Shown here one piece after another: positions 11,737-17,512 of a stretch of 64,000 bases of DNA. The notes beneath the pieces were generated by a model. The model was given only the letters and a program-made list of their open reading frames with translations. It did no database searches and was not told the DNA's origin. This DNA is from Protoeuglena noctilucae (Eukaryota). Every line of letters begins with the position of its first letter. Within the stretch, counting starts at the first letter, position 1. The DNA lies in NCBI GenBank assembly GCA_958009085.1, contig OY253673.1, forward strand, positions 992,001 through 1,056,000. The letters are read 5' to 3'. A program made the position numbers and the translations under genes.

Positions 11737-13554
11737 TCACGTCACCGCTCCCCCCGCCTTGGCCAGGAACCGCGGCTTGTTCTGGATGATGAACTCCTTG
11801 ACGCGGTCGTCCCCGTCTGCCCGCACCAGCAGCGGCCACGCCCGGAACGTGTCTCCGCCCCCCTCTGTGGCCTCGGGGAGCCTCGGGGGGTACAGGACGA
11901 CCCCAAGGCCATGGGCAAACTTGAAGGTCTCCACGAAGAACTCGAGCGTCTGCGAGTGGTGCGGCACGGCCCCTGACGCGCAGTGGCCCCGAGGACGGCG
12001 GCCAGAGCTAAGCCGCGTCCCACCACACACACACCTCAAAGTTGTGGAAGGAGACTACCCGACTGTCCTGCACGCGCCGCATGGAGCGCTCCCACAGCTC
12101 GATCTGCTGGCACACCGCCTCGGGCACACGCTGGGACCCGGGCCGCCCCGGGTGTGCGTGCTCGGCCAGGTAGTTGATGATGGACGCGGCGTCCAGTCCC
12201 CGGTTGAAGGCGTCGTCCAGGGACTTGAACGTGATGGTGCCAACGAACAGGTTCGGGAGAATGCAGTCCGGGCGGCAGAACTGCCGCAGCACGTTCTGGT
12301 GGATGCGCGAGGACGTGTAGGCGTACACCTGCGTGCGCACGGGTCGTGGCTGGTCGCATAGAGCGAAGCAATAAGCGAGCAGGTAGTGGAGCAGCCCCGG
12401 GGCAGACCTCCGCTCTCACCCGAAAGTTCGTCTCCATGACAATCCAGCCCGAGACTCCGGCCCCCCCGTACCCATACCCCAGCCCCGTGTCGCTGCCGCC
12501 GAGCACGGCAGCGAGGTGCGTGGCGCAGAATCCCGGCCCTCGCCCAGTCTGGAGCGGCAGGAGGAGCCCCAGCTGGCAGAGATGCGCGATGGCCTGCTGC
12601 TCGGCGGGGCTGAACCCGGACAGGAGCCGGGGCATCCCGGGCTCGAGGAAGGAGATGTGCAGGAGGAGGGTGACGAGGGCGCCGGCGTCAAGCCCGTCGG
12701 GGCCCGCGACCATGCTCACGTAGCCGCGGACCACCTGCCACATCTGCGCCGCGGGGGGCTGCATGAGGAAGGCGAAGCGTCGGTCGTACCCGTCCAACAG
12801 CGTCCCCTCCCGCCGCACCGTCCGCAGGCCGGCAGCCTCGAGCAGGGCGCGCGCGTCGAGAGACGCCATCCCGAGGTCCGCAAACACGTCCGGCATCTCC
12901 GGCACTGCATTCTGCTCGTCGTTGATCAGAAAGAGCATGAGGGACTCCCAACGCTCCTGCGCGTACTGCGCCAGGGCCCCCGAGTCCGGTGCGCTCGACG
13001 ATAGGCCCGTGTCTGCCTGCGCGCCTGGTCCCTCCGCTGCGGTCAGCGGACGAGCGAGGCTCGCAGTGACACTGCGCGGCGTGTGCCACCCGCGTGCTAG
13101 CTGCGCTGCCTGGCCACGCACCCAGTCCGACCAACAAATTCTCGCGCAGCTTCCGGTGCAAGTGCTGCACCGGTGGCTTTCCTGCGCCCCCCGCATGGGT
13201 CGTCAGGATCCCGTGGTCGTGCAGGTTCTGCAGCGCCTCCCCCAGGGCAGACGGCCCCGATGCTGGGGTCACCGCAGCCGCCCACGACCGCAGGCGCTCG
13301 TCCTGAGCGTCCTCCGGAAGCGGGAGGAGCTTGAGCACGACCTGCTTCCCCACGGCGGGAAGCGCCCTACGGGTGCCGGGCAGAAAACGTGGCTGGGCAG
13401 AAGGCGTGGCTCATGTCAGGTCCAGAAGCCCTGTGTGATCGATCCGCGCGTACCTGAATGCGGCGAGCGCGCCCCACTTGGAGTCGTAGAGCTCCTCGAC
13501 CTGCTCCTGCGGAAGATGGCCGAGGAAGCCGAACAGGCCCTTGTGCCGCGCCAT
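11737..13554 (-). CDS. GTF2H4: TFIIH subunit p52/Tfb2
   Basis: LY.SKWGALAAFR|ALPAVGKQVVLKLL, YAQERWESLMLFL, FAFLMQ, IVMETNFR|VYAYTSS, LPNLFVGTIT, IINYLAEHAHP and VPEAVCQQIELWE. Confidence 0.92.
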
Positions 13555-13950
13555 CCCAGCCCCGATCCGCTCCGGATGAGCCCCTCAGCGCTTCATGGTG
13601 CAGCAAGAGCTCCGCGGCGGCTCTCAGGCAGCGACCGCCGAGGCGGCCGCGACGCCTCGCTGAAAGAACCCGAACAGAGCGCGATGCTGCGCCACAGCCT
13701 GCACCCCACGGATGCATCGCGCCGCGCGCTCAGCGCGACTAAGGATCGGTGCGCCCCGGTCACAATCCTGTGCCAGTCGCATGAAACAACGCACCACCCG
13801 CGCCTCTTCCTCGCCGGGTCCCCTTGCAGGCGGACCGGGGGGCCCCGGCCCCCGGCTTCGCCAAAGTGGAGGGTGCCTGAAGGAGGATGTCGGCTCTCAG
13901 TTTCAATTGCGTCTATGGCAGCATAGTTGCCAACTAGCAGCGATACATCG

Positions 13951-14240
13951 CTCTGAGGCCTAAGCCGCGGTCATCAATGAAGCAGTCGTCGTAAGCCAGC
14001 AGAACACCTTGTTGATGGTGGGGCGTGGCGGCGTCGTTGGTCACCATGTCGGTGCAGATGCGGTCCGCATGAGTCTTGGTCGGCGGTGCATCGCCGGCGG
14101 ACCTCTCAGTCGGCGTCGGAGTCGGAGGAAGAGTCCTCGAGGGTCTGGAGGACGGCGTCGAGGGCCTGGGGCGTGGCGGCCTCCTTGGTCATCTCGGTCA
14201 GGATGCGGTCCGCGTCGGCCTTGGTCGCTGGGGTCGCGCC
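13951..14240 (-). repeat. Diverged tandem duplication of the 3' end of the minus-strand gene fragment
   Basis: 14019-14096 (tggggcgtggcggcgtcgttggtcaccatgtcggtgcagatgcggtccgc...) aligns with 14167-14241 (tggggcgtggcggcctccttggtc---atctcggtcaggatgcggtccgc...). Confidence 0.85.
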
Positions 14241-14380
14241 GTCGTAGCCCATCAGCTTGAGCGGCTTGACGGTGCGGTCGTCGGGGAGGTCCTGCTTGCG
14301 TTTGTTGGCGTTGCGGATCAGCTTGGCGATCAGCGCGGAGGCGTCCCTCTTGTTGTTGGGGATCCCGCGATCGCGGAAGA
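14106..14380 (-). pseudogene. 5'-truncated fragment of an unknown intronless gene (C-terminal ~90 aa)
   Basis: Strong C/G third-position bias on the minus strand: FRDRGIPNNKRDASALIAKLIRNANKRKQDLPDDRTVKPLKLMGYDGATPATKADADRILTEM...SDSDAD-stop. The coding bias flips to the + strand at about 14380. Confidence 0.6.
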
Positions 14381-15154
14381 GGTGCTGGACTTTGTGGAGG
14401 AGCGCTGCGTCCCGGCCGGGTTCGAGGTGCCCGTGCAGTGGCTGTTCCTGGCCGCACGGAACCAGGCCGTCGACGAGCACAACCAGAGGTGCGTCGATCG
14501 GATGGGACGGGAGGGCCGCGAGACCCTGACGGCGGTGTTCGCCGCGAGGGAGGGCAGCGTGTGGACGCCCGTGCGCGACCCGCCCGCGTACGTCAGGAAG
14601 GCGGCAGCCGGAGTGAACGCAGGGGCAGGCGCAGAGGCGCTGACCCTGTGCCCCGGGTGCCCCCGTCATGCTGACGAGCAACATCGACGTCGCCGCGAAG
14701 CAGGTGAACGGCACGGTGGGCACGGTGGTGAAGTTCCTTCCCAACCTCACAATGGGCGGGATCGGCGCCGTGGAGGTCAGGCTCCCGGACGGGTCGACGA
14801 CCCCCATCACACCGTCGCGACTTCCACTTCAACGTGTACGACAAGGAGTACCGGGTGGAGGCGTTCCCGCTGCGAGCCGCCTTCGCCATGACGGTGCACA
14901 AGGCCCAGGGCAGCACGTACGCCACCGACGTCCTCGTCGACCTCGCGGGGTGCTTCGCCAGCGGCCAGGCGTACGTGGCCATGTCGCGCGTCCAGTCGGC
15001 CGCGCAGCTGCACTTCGTCAGGCACAGCAGGGAGGAGTTCAAGAAGATCTTCCGGGCGTGCGGGGTCGACCTCAAGATCGTCCAGGTCCTCCACGCGATG
15101 CGCCACATGCGCCCGGCCCACACGTCGCTGGCCGCGCTCGGCGCGGCGCCGTGA
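14380..15154 (+). pseudogene. PIF1-family (SF1B) helicase, C-terminal half, two +1 frameshifts, no Walker A/B
   Basis: LAARNQAVDEHN, LTLCPGCP/VMLTSNID...VNGTVGTV, FPLRAAFAMTVHKAQGST and VDLAGCFASGQAYVAMSRVQS lie in three successive frames (shifts at about 14660 and 14815). Confidence 0.92.
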
Positions 15155-15636
15155 CGCGCCGCCGACCACGTCCTCGTCGCGGCCCGCCCACGCATAGCCG
15201 CTCGCGCGTCGCACGGCGCCGGCAGCCTCCAGAATCGCCCCCGTTGAACGCTGCGGCACGGCATCGCTGCCCGCCCCCGGCACTCGGTCGCCGGGACGTC
15301 CGGGCCCTCGCGTCACGCGCGGTGCGATCGACCCCGTCATAACGGACACGTCGCCGCCGCGACGAAGGTCGTCGCCGTCGTCCGCGGAGCGCGCGCGATC
15401 CCTGCCCACTGCAGCCAGCTCCGGGCTGCGTCTGTCGCGCCGCGGACGTCCCGCGGCCGCCGCCCCTGGCATTTTCTTCTTTCGAAGCTGCCGTCCGCGG
15501 CACGCGCGGTCGCCGCGCCGCCCTGCAGGACCCGTTCGGCGCCGCCGCGTCGTCCGCCGTCGCGCGACGTGTTCCGTCGATCACGCTGAGGACTTGATCG
15601 CCGAACTGGCGCCCGTCCGCCGTCGCATTGCCCCCT

Positions 15637-15666
15637 CGCGCAACGCGCGTGACACACTTTCTCTGG
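15637..15666 (+). other. Helitron-type 3' terminus (GC hairpin + CTRR)
   Basis: CGCGCAACGCGCG-tgacacactttct-CTGG|T. Confidence 0.65.
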
Positions 15667-16154
15667 TAAACGCCCTTTCTTACACTTTCCCGGGTCTATA
15701 GAGCTTGGCGCAAAGGAAGCGTGGTGCAAGCGCGAGCAAACGAACCAGCGTGTATAGAGCATCAGCAAATGAGTCTTACATTGGCAGAGAGTGTAGTCCC
15801 TTAGCTGGTTGGGCAAATCGCCCTTGGTTACTAAATGCCAGGCATGGAGGTGACCCGACGATCTCCCTCGCTGCTCAATTTGACAAATAGTGTACGATGC
15901 GCCCACTCTGCCCCGCGGCAGACCCCGAGGGGATTTGTTCCAGCGTTACAAGCGACACGTTTCACACCGCCGCGCGCCGCGCGCTCAGTGTCGCCATGCG
16001 GCTTCCAACTCGATGGTCGGTTTCGTGATATTTGATGCGATTCCTGTGCGTATCGTTTAGCTCGGGCCGTGGTTGACGCGGCGCGGGCAAGGCGTTTGCA
16101 TGCAAAATCGCTGACCGATCACGGGGCAACACAGGATCCGCATCTCATTTGCTC

Positions 16155-17512
16155 ATGCAGGCCAACCATCAGTACACAGACCAAAACGGGGGCTCCAAGC
16201 CCCGGGGATATCTCCATTGGGCGCACCATCGCGAGCCGCAGGCTCACGTTGCCGACCAGTGAGCCAAGTTGCTGCGTCTGCCTCCCGATCGGTGGCGCGT
16301 TCTGCAGGCACTATCTGAACTGTTACTGCGCCCCGCTGCCCGCAGCCCCACCTCTCGGCAAGCGATGGGTGTGGACGGCCACGCCGCAGCCGATGGGCAC
16401 CTCGAGAACCACCTGGGGAGCATGGAGATGCTGCGCCCGCTGGCCGTCAAAGACAGCCACTTGCACCACACTGACCCCGCCCACGAGATCAACGTTTTCG
16501 CGCCCCTCAGCAAGGGCCCTGGCGGCGCCCCCATCCTCGGCGACCTCTTCTCCCCGCCGGACATTTACGACAACTTCGTCGCGCAAGGTGTGAAGAAGGC
16601 GCACGCCTCGTGGATGCCGGCCATGGTCCTGGGCTTCATGGCGGGCTGCTACATTGGCCTCGGAGCACTTCTGGCCGACACGGTTGGCGGCAACATCCCC
16701 GGCGTCAAGGCCACAAACCTGGGCCTACAAAAGTTCGTCTTTGGGTTCATCGGCCTCCCCTTCGGACTGCTGATGGTCGTCATCACCGGCGCCGACCTGT
16801 ACACCAGCACGGTCGGCTGCTGCTTCGCCGCCTTCGTCGCCCGCAAGATCAGCTTCTTCGTGAGTCGCCTGGGCTTCCCGCCACTTGCGCCTCGCTGCTA
16901 CACCGCACGCTCATCGCCATTTCCCTGCGTTTTCACAGGACTGGCTGCGCGCTTCATTCAGCGCGTGGCTCACCAACCTCGCCGGGTCCCTCGTGCTCGT
17001 CGGCCTCGTCTACGCCGGCCAGACGCACGAACACGACGCCGGCACCATGGCCGTGGCCCGGGTCAAGACATCGCATCCCTTTGGCGTCGTCTTCTGCCGC
17101 GGCATCCTCTGCAACTGGCTCGTGTGCATGGCCGTGGTGCAGGCGACCTCCGCCAACACCTTCGCAGGCAAATTCTTCGCCGTCCTCTTCCCCATCGGCG
17201 CGTTCGTGACCATGGTGCGTGTCGCCCCGCCCTAGGCCTGCCACTCGTGCGTGCGCTAGCGTGGTCCCCGCCGCTCGACTGTCCCTGCCCAGCCGACTGC
17301 AGGGGTTCGACCACTCGGTGGCGAACATGTTCCTGGTGCCCATGGGCATGGCCGCGGGGGCCCACGACGTGACGGTGACGGACTTCATCGTCAAGTCGCT
17401 CATACCAGCCACGCTGGGGAACGCTGTCGGGGGCGCGTTCTTCGTCGCTACCGTCCTTGGCCTGGCCTATGACAAGATCCCCGGTCTCAATCTGGCAGAG
17501 AACGTGTGGTGA
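16155..17512 (+). CDS. NAR1: Formate/nitrite transporter (FNT) family channel, NAR1-like
   Basis: SPPDIY, GFMAGCYIGLG, LPFGLLMVVITGADLYTST, WLTNLAGS, RGILCNWLVCMAV, PIGAFVTM|GFDHSVANMF and ATLGNAVGG. The start is 16155 (via an intron at about 16259-16345) or 16365. Confidence 0.93.

Follow-up and report, generated by a model that had tools for sequence, protein, structure and literature searches.

A broken PIF1-type helicase tail between the TFIIH p52 and formate/nitrite transporter genes of Protoeuglena noctilucae: a multicopy relic, probably of a mobile element

Results

The locus and its neighbouring genes

The region discussed here belongs to the window (the whole 64,000-nt stretch of DNA that was analysed) and contains the terminal part of a PIF1-type helicase gene in broken form, which is present in several copies in the genome and is probably what is left of a mobile element. 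It is located between two ordinary genes, Tfb2 (TFIIH p52) and a formate/nitrite transporter gene (NAR1), which is the setting assigned to it by a sequence-only reading of the same DNA. The PIF1 relic and an adjoining minus-strand relic occupy most of the divergent promoter region of these two genes. The features, in window coordinates, are as follows.

13960 to 14100, minus strand: degenerate partial duplicate of the minus-strand relic (self-BLAST, direct repeats D1 and D4)
14106 to 14365, minus strand: C-terminal coding relic with an acidic tail, stop codon at 14106-14108 (GC3 0.96)
14373 to 14645, plus strand: PIF1-like piece 1, frame 0, probable motif IV region (GC3 0.89)
14647 to 14808, plus strand: PIF1-like piece 2, frame +1, 2B domain (GC3 0.93, Pif1_2B_dom, tblastn)
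14813 to 15154, plus strand: PIF1-like piece 3, frame +2, motifs V-VI, C-terminal tail and stop codon; the portion of the gene that is repeated (GC3 0.98, UvrD_C_2)
15155 to 15712, plus strand: GC-rich non-coding tail common to the family copies (GC, contig depth, P0166 identity)
15637 to 15666, plus strand: proposed hairpin, 13-nt spacer and CTGG terminus, internal to the repeat and not its end
15711 to 15713, no strand: end of the likeness between the window and the P0166-type copy (protein alignment, X7 loose end)
15742 to 15847, plus strand: first (5'UTR) exon of the formate/nitrite transporter gene (spliced RNA contig, record 25 of run X9)

The transporter start codon is at 16365, 699 nt after position 15666, and not at the distance of ~490 nt given previously. 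Record 25 has GT..AG joints from 15847 to 16159 and from 16258 to 16346; the left end of the first exon, 15742, was computed from the coordinates of this record, and contigs cannot fix the transcription start. The edge of the repeat is ~30 nt from this exon. The introns of the neighbouring genes are 85-311 nt long, as deduced from contig joints, and the PIF1 relic is intronless. The possibility of introners was considered by comparing three introns of 85-87 nt, and it was dropped, as these show no likeness to each other. The GC3 of the host exons is 0.83-0.91. Rfam gave nothing anywhere in the window, and the tandem repeat search of the region gave nothing relevant.

The coding pieces of the helicase

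It had been proposed that the C terminus of a PIF1 helicase is split here by two +1 frameshifts, and this is borne out: the coding sequence runs through three successive plus-strand frames, from ~14373 to 15151, and the high GC3 values fall in exactly these three frames. The coding run of piece 3 extends from 14813 to 15151 and is followed by a stop codon at 15152-15154. Piece 2 matches Pif1_2B_dom with 22.9 bits (E 6.9e-5), which is just below the cut-off of 23.9, and has tblastn matches in frame 1. Piece 3 matches UvrD_C_2 with 20.8 bits (cut-off 27.4), has 4457 library matches and is matched by PIF1 structures of the Protein Data Bank with an E-value of 7e-8; over motifs V-VI the matches are to 7otj (35.9 bits) and 6hph (33.8 bits). 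From these comparisons the C-terminal half of a PIF1-family SF1 helicase, including the 2B/SH3-like domain and motifs V-VI, can be assigned to this region. Piece 1 aligns to PIF1 proteins only within a read-through of the frames, from ~14455 onwards; when searched alone, it has no significant match among 149 references, and the protein libraries searched contain no longer protein that matches it.

The ATPase core (Walker A/B, motifs I-III, PIF1 signature) was not found: with 151 PIF1-type proteins as tblastn queries, there is no match left of position 14587 except that of the locus's own antisense ORF. The second frameshift is missing from the related copies P0162 and P0164 and is therefore taken to be a lesion of the window copy. 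In the RNA run X9, no contig covers 14408-14809, and the contigs on 14813-15464 differ from the window at 4-17 positions each, so they derive from other copies; the X9 coverage says nothing firm on the transcription of the window copy. For the helicase piece, the atlas contains just small clusters of unnamed or UvrD_C_2 fragments, which provide a lead at most.

The minus-strand relic

The coding periodicity changes strand at ~14365, where that of the plus strand begins, and the segment 13948-14365 is made up of a minus-strand coding relic and its degenerate duplicate; it is unrelated to the helicase, being neither PIF1 nor Helitron sequence. The values of GC1, GC2 and GC3 over 14109-14390 are 0.65, 0.43 and 0.96. 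Self-BLAST aligns 14019-14082 with 14167-14227 (79.7% over 64 nt), and in the duplicate at 13960-14100 the codon periodicity is lost. The relic matches no Pfam family, its single database match is the locus's own antisense ORF, and its best score in the atlas is 0.77. Paralogous stretches of it exist elsewhere in the genome, and extra contigs with mismatches cover 14133-14228 in runs X2, X7 and X9. Short joints were also seen from 13858 to 14133/14148 and from 14196/14228 to 14813/14885, with sides of merely 27-30 nt, which makes them unreliable; they hint at another locus having the same order, the minus-strand relic followed by the helicase tail.

Copies of the relic in the genome

The PIF1 relic is multicopy. 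The P0002 cluster comprises 17 protein variants of 88-118 residues, all of them short ORFs (the longest having 118 residues), and they are carried by many contigs ranging from 663 to 361,847 nt in length. Of these variants, 15 were aligned; their identity to the window is 90-99%, and their substitutions form a mosaic. In X2, a culture run, a contig of single-copy depth (183) stops at 14899, the region 14885-15657 is broken into short contigs, one of them at 2.5 times the single-copy depth (468), and single-copy sequence (depth 226) is back at 15658. The summed contig depth over 14885-15657 is 468-1798 per bin, which is up to ~10 times the single-copy value, and the copy number of the 3' part is estimated at roughly 3-10. 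The summed depth is highest over the tail, 15155-15712, where it exceeds that of the coding part.

The left ends of the copies differ. Loose ends of other copies are found at 14858 in X2 and X7, where the left flank is unrelated to the window, and at 14813 in X9, where the loose letters match back to ~14798. Within the window, there are no further copies besides the 64-nt local duplication. Just one of 1.84 billion representatives is related to the relic with E ≤ 1e-30, and no intact relative is therefore on record. With the C-terminal piece as the query, no copies of the family occur among the matches listed from IMG/VR and metagenome contigs, which are distant PIF1 relatives only (at most 57% identity over at least 44 residues).

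The GC-rich tail, the right-hand edge and the proposed termini

A long GC-rich non-coding stretch had been noticed after the helicase, ending in a sharp fall in GC content, and both observations hold. The stretch is ~560 bp long with a GC content of 0.74-0.79, dropping to 0.51-0.57 beyond ~15650; its codon-position GC is flat, and the five ORFs on it (both strands) contain no Pfam family.

The motifs on which the proposal of a Helitron rested are present as written: the palindrome CGCGC-AAC-GCGCG at 15637-15649, a spacer of 13 nt, CTGG at 15663-15666, T15667 and, at the other side, A13947 followed by TC. These motifs do not delimit the repeat. The homology was to end at CTGG15666, with its continuation beyond this point counting against the proposal, and it does continue: P0166 is identical to the window at 120 of 124 residues through 15711, 45 nt beyond CTGG, and a second, more diverged contig aligns to ~15717, apparently also past 15666. 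In run X7 there is a loose end at 15713, and an exact contig begins again at 15710. The best-supported right-hand edge of the repeat is 15711-15713. P0166 may represent this very locus in a different strain and not a paralogue. The 5' end proposed at 13948 is shared by no copy; others begin at ~14798 or 14858. The joint from 13947 to 15667, which would mark the empty A|T site, is not among the joints listed for four runs, where contigs show presence and not absence.

The hairpin-CTRR+T and ATC motifs at this locus are not above chance. The pattern of a 5-bp stem, a loop of 3-6 nt, a gap of 5-15 nt and CTRR+T occurs 14 times on both strands of the window, and ATC occurs 621 times on the plus strand. 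The segment 15560-15720 folds worse than 197 of 200 shuffled sequences (z-score +1.9), and the palindrome motif is seen again at 15305-15321. The stem of the palindrome is retained in another copy with a different loop (loose end at 15627), and in the diverged copy the mismatches are concentrated at 15664-15671. Canonical Helitron termini are described in PMC11417382 as so common that finders based on them yield many false positives.

Comparison with Helitrons and cellular PIF1 helicases

A Rep/HUH domain was not found in the 64-kb window: the 151 query proteins, five of which have Helitron_like_N, give 177 tblastn matches, all within 14109-15133. Nor did the protein libraries searched yield a full-length relative or an autonomous one with a Rep domain. 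In two trees, containing 63 of the 149 references and three of the five Rep-bearing ones, the window sequence is placed beside the three rows labelled Helitron_like_N and apart from 47 other PIF1 rows, with SH-aLRT values of 81-86 and ultrafast bootstrap values of 24-54. This grouping weakly suggests an affinity of the helicase with Rep-bearing helicases. A likeness of the C-terminal tail to Rep-bearing P0133, seen in the read-through alignment, was discarded, as the tail searched by itself gives an E-value of 1.9 among 149 references.

The relic is similar to Helraiser/Helibat (HLE1) in having the C terminus of a PIF1-type SF1 helicase, in being multicopy, intronless and fragmentary, and in its non-coding 3' tail with a small GC palindrome. 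As in gene-capturing Helitrons, it adjoins pieces of a second gene that run in the opposite direction. In canonical Helitrons a Rep (HUH) domain is fused upstream of the helicase, and the 3' hairpin precedes the CTRR end by about 10-12 nt. Unlike in Helraiser/Helibat, neither a Rep/HUH domain nor a common 5' TC end is found here, and the palindrome and CTRR are not at the edge of the homology. The stem in the window has 5 bp, whereas the Helraiser palindrome is given in PMC4778049 as ~19 bp, at 11 nt from the end. The window sequence is also matched more weakly by Helraiser (24.5 bits) than by solved cellular PIF1 proteins (32-36 bits).

The HLE2 group (Helitron2/Helentron) has the same type of helicase, and its traits, DUF6570 and/or the Exo_endo_phos endonuclease, are present in the library relatives P0013, P0068, P0074, P0093 and P0125. 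No endonuclease domain follows the helicase in the window, where the stop codon is at 15152 and the tail ORFs contain no Pfam family. HLE2 elements have terminal inverted repeats of 12-16 nt and a 3' stem-loop, and they insert between T and T. Here, the right edge at 15700-15715 takes part in no inverted pair, and the window lacks the element's left end. Cellular PIF1 proteins (yeast Pif1/Rrm3, human PIF1) provide the best matches among solved structures and also have the 2B domain, but the window has the C-terminal half only, frameshifted and accompanied by many decayed copies, and among the 1.84 billion representatives no intact orthologue having the tail of the window sequence is on record.

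Discussion

It is proposed that the locus carries a dead, 5'-truncated remnant of a PIF1-family helicase gene together with its tail, belonging to a low-copy repeat whose source is most likely a mobile element, with a Helitron-like element as the leading candidate (probability roughly 0.6). The foremost source would be a Helitron-like element encoding the helicase, and a Helitron origin of the relic is plausible. The remnant would be unable to move or to act, having lost the ATPase half and any Rep nuclease, being interrupted by two frameshifts and having no canonical terminus. The copies start at different points, at or before ~14373 in the window and at ~14798 and ~14858 elsewhere, and have the tail in common to at least 15711; at its left side the remnant adjoins an unrelated minus-strand coding relic. 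The Helitron island of the sequence-only reading is thus retained as a broken, intronless PIF1 fragment of a repeated family, and is given up as an element with boundaries at 13948 and 15666.

Helitrons truncated at the 5' end are known from bat genomes, and Helraiser transposition requires the left end, according to PMC4778049. Rolling-circle transposition itself would therefore not yield a set of copies that vary at the 5' end and agree in the 3' part; by analogy with Helraiser, later deletions or another copying process would be needed.

An unlikely alternative, although the likeliest of those considered, involves no transposon: segmental duplication of a host PIF1-like paralogue would have produced dispersed copies or pseudogenes at the DNA level, which then decayed in a compact genome prone to deletions. 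This would be in agreement with the core motifs being nearest to cellular PIF1 structures, with GC3 values (0.89-0.98) that equal or exceed those of the host exons, with copy boundaries that are ragged at both sides, and with the absence of a Rep domain and of termini. However, the 1.84 billion representatives include no intact parent gene with the same C terminus, there are at least 15 distinct variants on many contigs, and the X2/X7 copy has an unrelated left flank at 14858.

Considerably less probable are retro-copies, either processed pseudogenes or 5'-truncated reverse-transcribed copies of a helicase mRNA. Varying 5' ends, a common 3'UTR-like tail over which the contigs sum to a greater depth than over the coding part, and the lack of introns in a relic whose neighbours have introns of 85-311 nt are as expected for such copies. 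However, the window has neither a poly(A) nor an A-rich run at 15712, and in the other copy the loose end does not begin with such a run; no target-site duplication is seen, as no direct repeat of at least 7 nt is shared by 15700-15735 and 13650-14420, bar a 9-mer inside the repeat, and no source gene is known among the 1.84 billion representatives.

It is similarly improbable that the relic is a piece of a large DNA virus or Polinton-like element that integrated here and carried a PIF1-type helicase. Viral contigs do carry PIF1-like helicases, the core is matched by three IMG/VR loci at 47-51%, and the adjoining minus-strand ORF has no cellular relatives. Nevertheless, the viral matches are confined to the 45-57 residues that are conserved universally, and cellular or Helitron proteins are at least as close; the codon-position GC is host-like, and no other viral hallmark gene was seen among the ORFs listed for 12036-17372 or among the subset of these scanned with Pfam.

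There is also a slight chance that a lineage-specific helicase element of a marine picoeukaryote has spread as 5'-truncated copies with a fixed tail, and that the final 45 nt of this tail, 15667-15711, were co-opted as the core promoter of the transporter gene; a TATAGAG motif is located within this segment, ~40 nt before the first transcribed exon.

The bounded, non-autonomous canonical Helitron (HLE1), running from TC at 13948 to the hairpin and CTGG at 15666 and inserted between A and T, is the least probable reading: the motifs exist, the palindrome stem is kept in a copy with a differing loop, GC falls right after 15650, the mismatches of the diverged copy cluster at 15664-15671, and read-through of the 3' end, which can carry flanking DNA (PMC4778049), could explain one match past 15666, but homology extends 45 nt (and in a second contig apparently to ~15717) beyond this point, no copy starts at 13948, 13948-14365 is the unrelated minus-strand relic, and a motif with a 5-bp stem, occurring by chance 14 times in the window, lies in sequence with a fold z-score of +1.9.

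For annotation, this stretch is to be masked as a repeat or pseudogene and not annotated as a gene, and beyond annotation its importance is little. It is a worked example of TC...hairpin-CTRR motifs alone being insufficient for Helitron calls in GC-rich genomes. If the family is Helitron-derived, it adds one more decayed lineage, in a marine alga. The short distance between the repeat edge and the first exon of the transporter gene makes a modest case for promoter sequence contributed by a repeat. Spurious ORFs on both strands of the stretch (P0001, P0166) have already been produced by prokaryote-style gene callers.

Structure of the locus

The window (67.7% GC, no N) is eukaryotic, as its metatranscriptome RNA contigs are spliced at GT..AG introns of 85 to 311 nt. 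The sequence derives from a marine organism that is represented in marine metagenomes and, as organism A, in culture runs. The helicase relic region is placed between the Tfb2/TFIIH p52 gene and the formate/nitrite transporter gene.

Features of the region, with the supporting evidence in brackets
13552-13554, minus strand: ATG of the Tfb2/TFIIH p52 gene (Pfam Tfb2, E 1.3e-23; spliced RNA contig extends to 13702)
13960-14100, minus strand: degenerate duplicate of part of the following relic (self-alignment and direct repeats)
14106-14365, minus strand: C-terminal part of a protein without known family, with an acidic Ser/Asp tail (codon periodicity)
14373-14645, 14647-14808 and 14813-15151, plus strand: PIF1-type helicase C-terminus in three successive frames (pieces 1, 2 and 3), stop at 15152-15154 (Pfam, tblastn, structures, GC3)
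15155-15712, plus strand: non-coding tail (GC 74-79%, flat codon-position GC)
~15742-15847 and 16159-16258, plus strand: transporter 5'UTR exons (spliced RNA contig)
15848-16158 (311 nt) and 16259-16345 (87 nt), plus strand: two transporter 5'UTR introns (spliced RNA contig)
16365, plus strand: ATG of the transporter gene (Form_Nir_trans, E 1.7e-12)

The preferred reading, with a probability of about 0.6, is that a mobile element bearing a helicase, most likely a Helitron-like one, left behind this decayed and 5'-truncated remnant, which adjoins an unrelated second coding relic in the promoter region between two divergent genes. The helicase relic is presumably inert. The sequence-only reading had proposed a canonical Helitron at 13948-15666, and its account of the three-frame PIF1 C-terminus and of the GC-rich, non-coding tail is correct. 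Pieces 2 and 3 are recognizable by themselves (Pif1_2B_dom, 22.9 bits, and UvrD_C_2, 20.8 bits; also by tblastn), and solved PIF1 structures match them at E 7e-8. For piece 1, the support is a GC3 of 0.89 together with read-through alignments that start at ~14455; as a separate query it matches none of the 149 references, and no longer protein that shares it is found in the libraries searched. The related helicase copies P0162 and P0164 read uninterrupted across the second frameshift, which is therefore a lesion of the window copy. None of the five ORFs on the tail is assigned to a family.

Over its left third (13948-14365), the proposed element consists not of PIF1 or Helitron sequence but of the minus-strand coding relic and its degenerate duplicate. 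This relic shows very strong codon periodicity (GC of 0.65/0.43/0.96 at positions 1/2/3), which switches to the plus strand at ~14365-14373. It has no Pfam family and no atlas relative, and its sole database match is the locus' own antisense ORF; diverged paralogous stretches matching 14133-14228 are found in other organism A contigs, in a metagenome and in an RNA run (depth 20).

Boundaries of the repeat

The proposed right end, CTGG15666, is not an element end, since the homology extends ~45 nt past it, an outcome that the sequence-only reading had itself named as refuting. This is seen from P0166, a 186-aa antisense ORF of another contig, in which 120 of 124 residues are identical to the window translation of 15340-15711, unrelated sequence following, and from contigs of sequencing run X7. 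One of these has a loose end at 15713 with the same foreign flank as P0166, the exact contig for the window's own flank begins at 15710, and a second, more diverged contig (depth 8.09) aligns from ~15548 to ~15717, its mismatches concentrated at 15664-15671 and five extra letters inserted near 15691-15695. Possibly P0166 represents this very locus in a strain whose right flank differs, but the breakpoint would still be at ~15712 and not at 15666.

On the left side, nothing marks 13948. Other copies diverge from the window at 14858 in runs X2 and X7, with the same foreign sequence in both, and at ~14798 in RNA run X9, P0162 and P0164. The proposed terminal signals are frequent: a 5-bp stem with a loop of 3-6 nt, followed after 5-15 nt by CTRR+T, occurs 14 times in total on the two window strands, ATC occurs 621 times in the window, and the palindrome motif is also present at 15305-15321. 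In folding, 197 of 200 shuffled sequences do better than the region 15560-15720. According to the HELIANO paper (PMC11417382), TC/CTRR signals are widespread, with many false positives. The palindrome of the canonical Helitron Helraiser is described as 19 bp long and 11 nt from its end (PMC4778049), whereas the proposed stem has 5 bp. The empty-site joint 13947>15667 is not among the joints listed for four runs, which is not evidence of absence. A bounded canonical Helitron is the least probable of the readings.

Copies of the repeat

A cluster of 17 sequences (88-118 aa, on contigs of 663-361,847 nt) includes the 99-aa ORF over the helicase end; the 15 cluster members aligned are 90-99% identical to the window, with mosaic differences. 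In run X2 (organism A), a single contig (depth 183) is exact over 12800-14899, and a depth-226 contig restarts at 15658. The assembly of 14885-15657 is fragmented into short contigs. Up to four different X2 contigs carry another letter at single positions. Of the short contigs, the one at 14885-15222 has depth 468, and the summed depths per bin are 468-1798, which are not copy numbers. This indicates that several copies are present, the tail in more of them than the coding part. There are no other copies inside the 64-kb window, and only one of 1.84 billion representatives, a 99-aa fragment, is a close relative.

Run X13, labelled as a different organism (organism B), has a 190-nt contig (depth ~2) identical to the TFIIH p52 5' region (13536-13725) and a helicase-tail copy with 95% identity over 14927-15155; these contigs come either from traces of organism A in the sample or from a very close relative.

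Affinity of the helicase remnant

The helicase family is multicopy, intronless and fragmentary, which is counted for a Helitron origin. Trees were calculated from the read-through fragment and 63 of 149 library relatives, keeping rows with one match of at least 100 query residues and at least 45 bits (86 rows dropped, including two of the five Rep-bearing proteins). The window fragment is placed among the three Helitron_like_N rows, apart from 47 other PIF1 rows, with weak support (SH-aLRT 81-86, ultrafast bootstrap 24-54, not converged). Against a Helitron origin, or neutral to it, are the scores of solved cellular PIF1 proteins (32-36 bits, versus 24.5 bits for Helraiser), the finding of no Rep domain in the 64-kb window, and the C-terminal tail, whose likeness to the Rep-bearing P0133 has no significance when it is searched by itself. 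In IMG/VR and the metagenome contig set, no close copy is among the matches listed. The foremost alternative, although an unlikely one, is that of segmental pseudogenes of a host gene.

Helraiser transposition is reported to require the left end, the right end being dispensable (PMC4778049); a set of copies that share the right part but differ in their left ends is therefore not a direct rolling-circle product, and points to later deletions or another copying route. Retro-copies are improbable, as their marks are missing: 15712 carries no A-tail, and flanking duplications are absent. A viral relic is equally improbable.

The repeat edge and the transporter gene

The sequence-only reading placed the element ~490 nt before the transporter (NAR1) start, which is inaccurate, the ATG at 16365 being 699 nt after 15666. 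Between the right edge of the repeat (~15712) and the point where the transporter's spliced RNA contig and first exon begin (~15742) lie ~30 nt. A TATAGAG motif in the shared last 45 nt of the repeat recurs at 15745-15760. This position is the only mildly interesting aspect of the locus and is a lead only, because a transcription start cannot be fixed from contigs.

A 16-nt direct repeat (81% alike; 15689-15704 and 15745-15760) contains TATAGAGC, possibly a core-promoter motif; its first unit is within the stretch common to another repeat copy and its second is at the start of the first transporter exon.

Spurious antisense ORFs of this region are present in public protein collections (14109-14807 and 15337-15906, minus strand): P0001 (233 aa), from the relic, is seen on 18 contigs, and P0166 derives from another copy. 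Such ORFs are a caution for protein databases that use prokaryotic gene callers on eukaryotic contigs.
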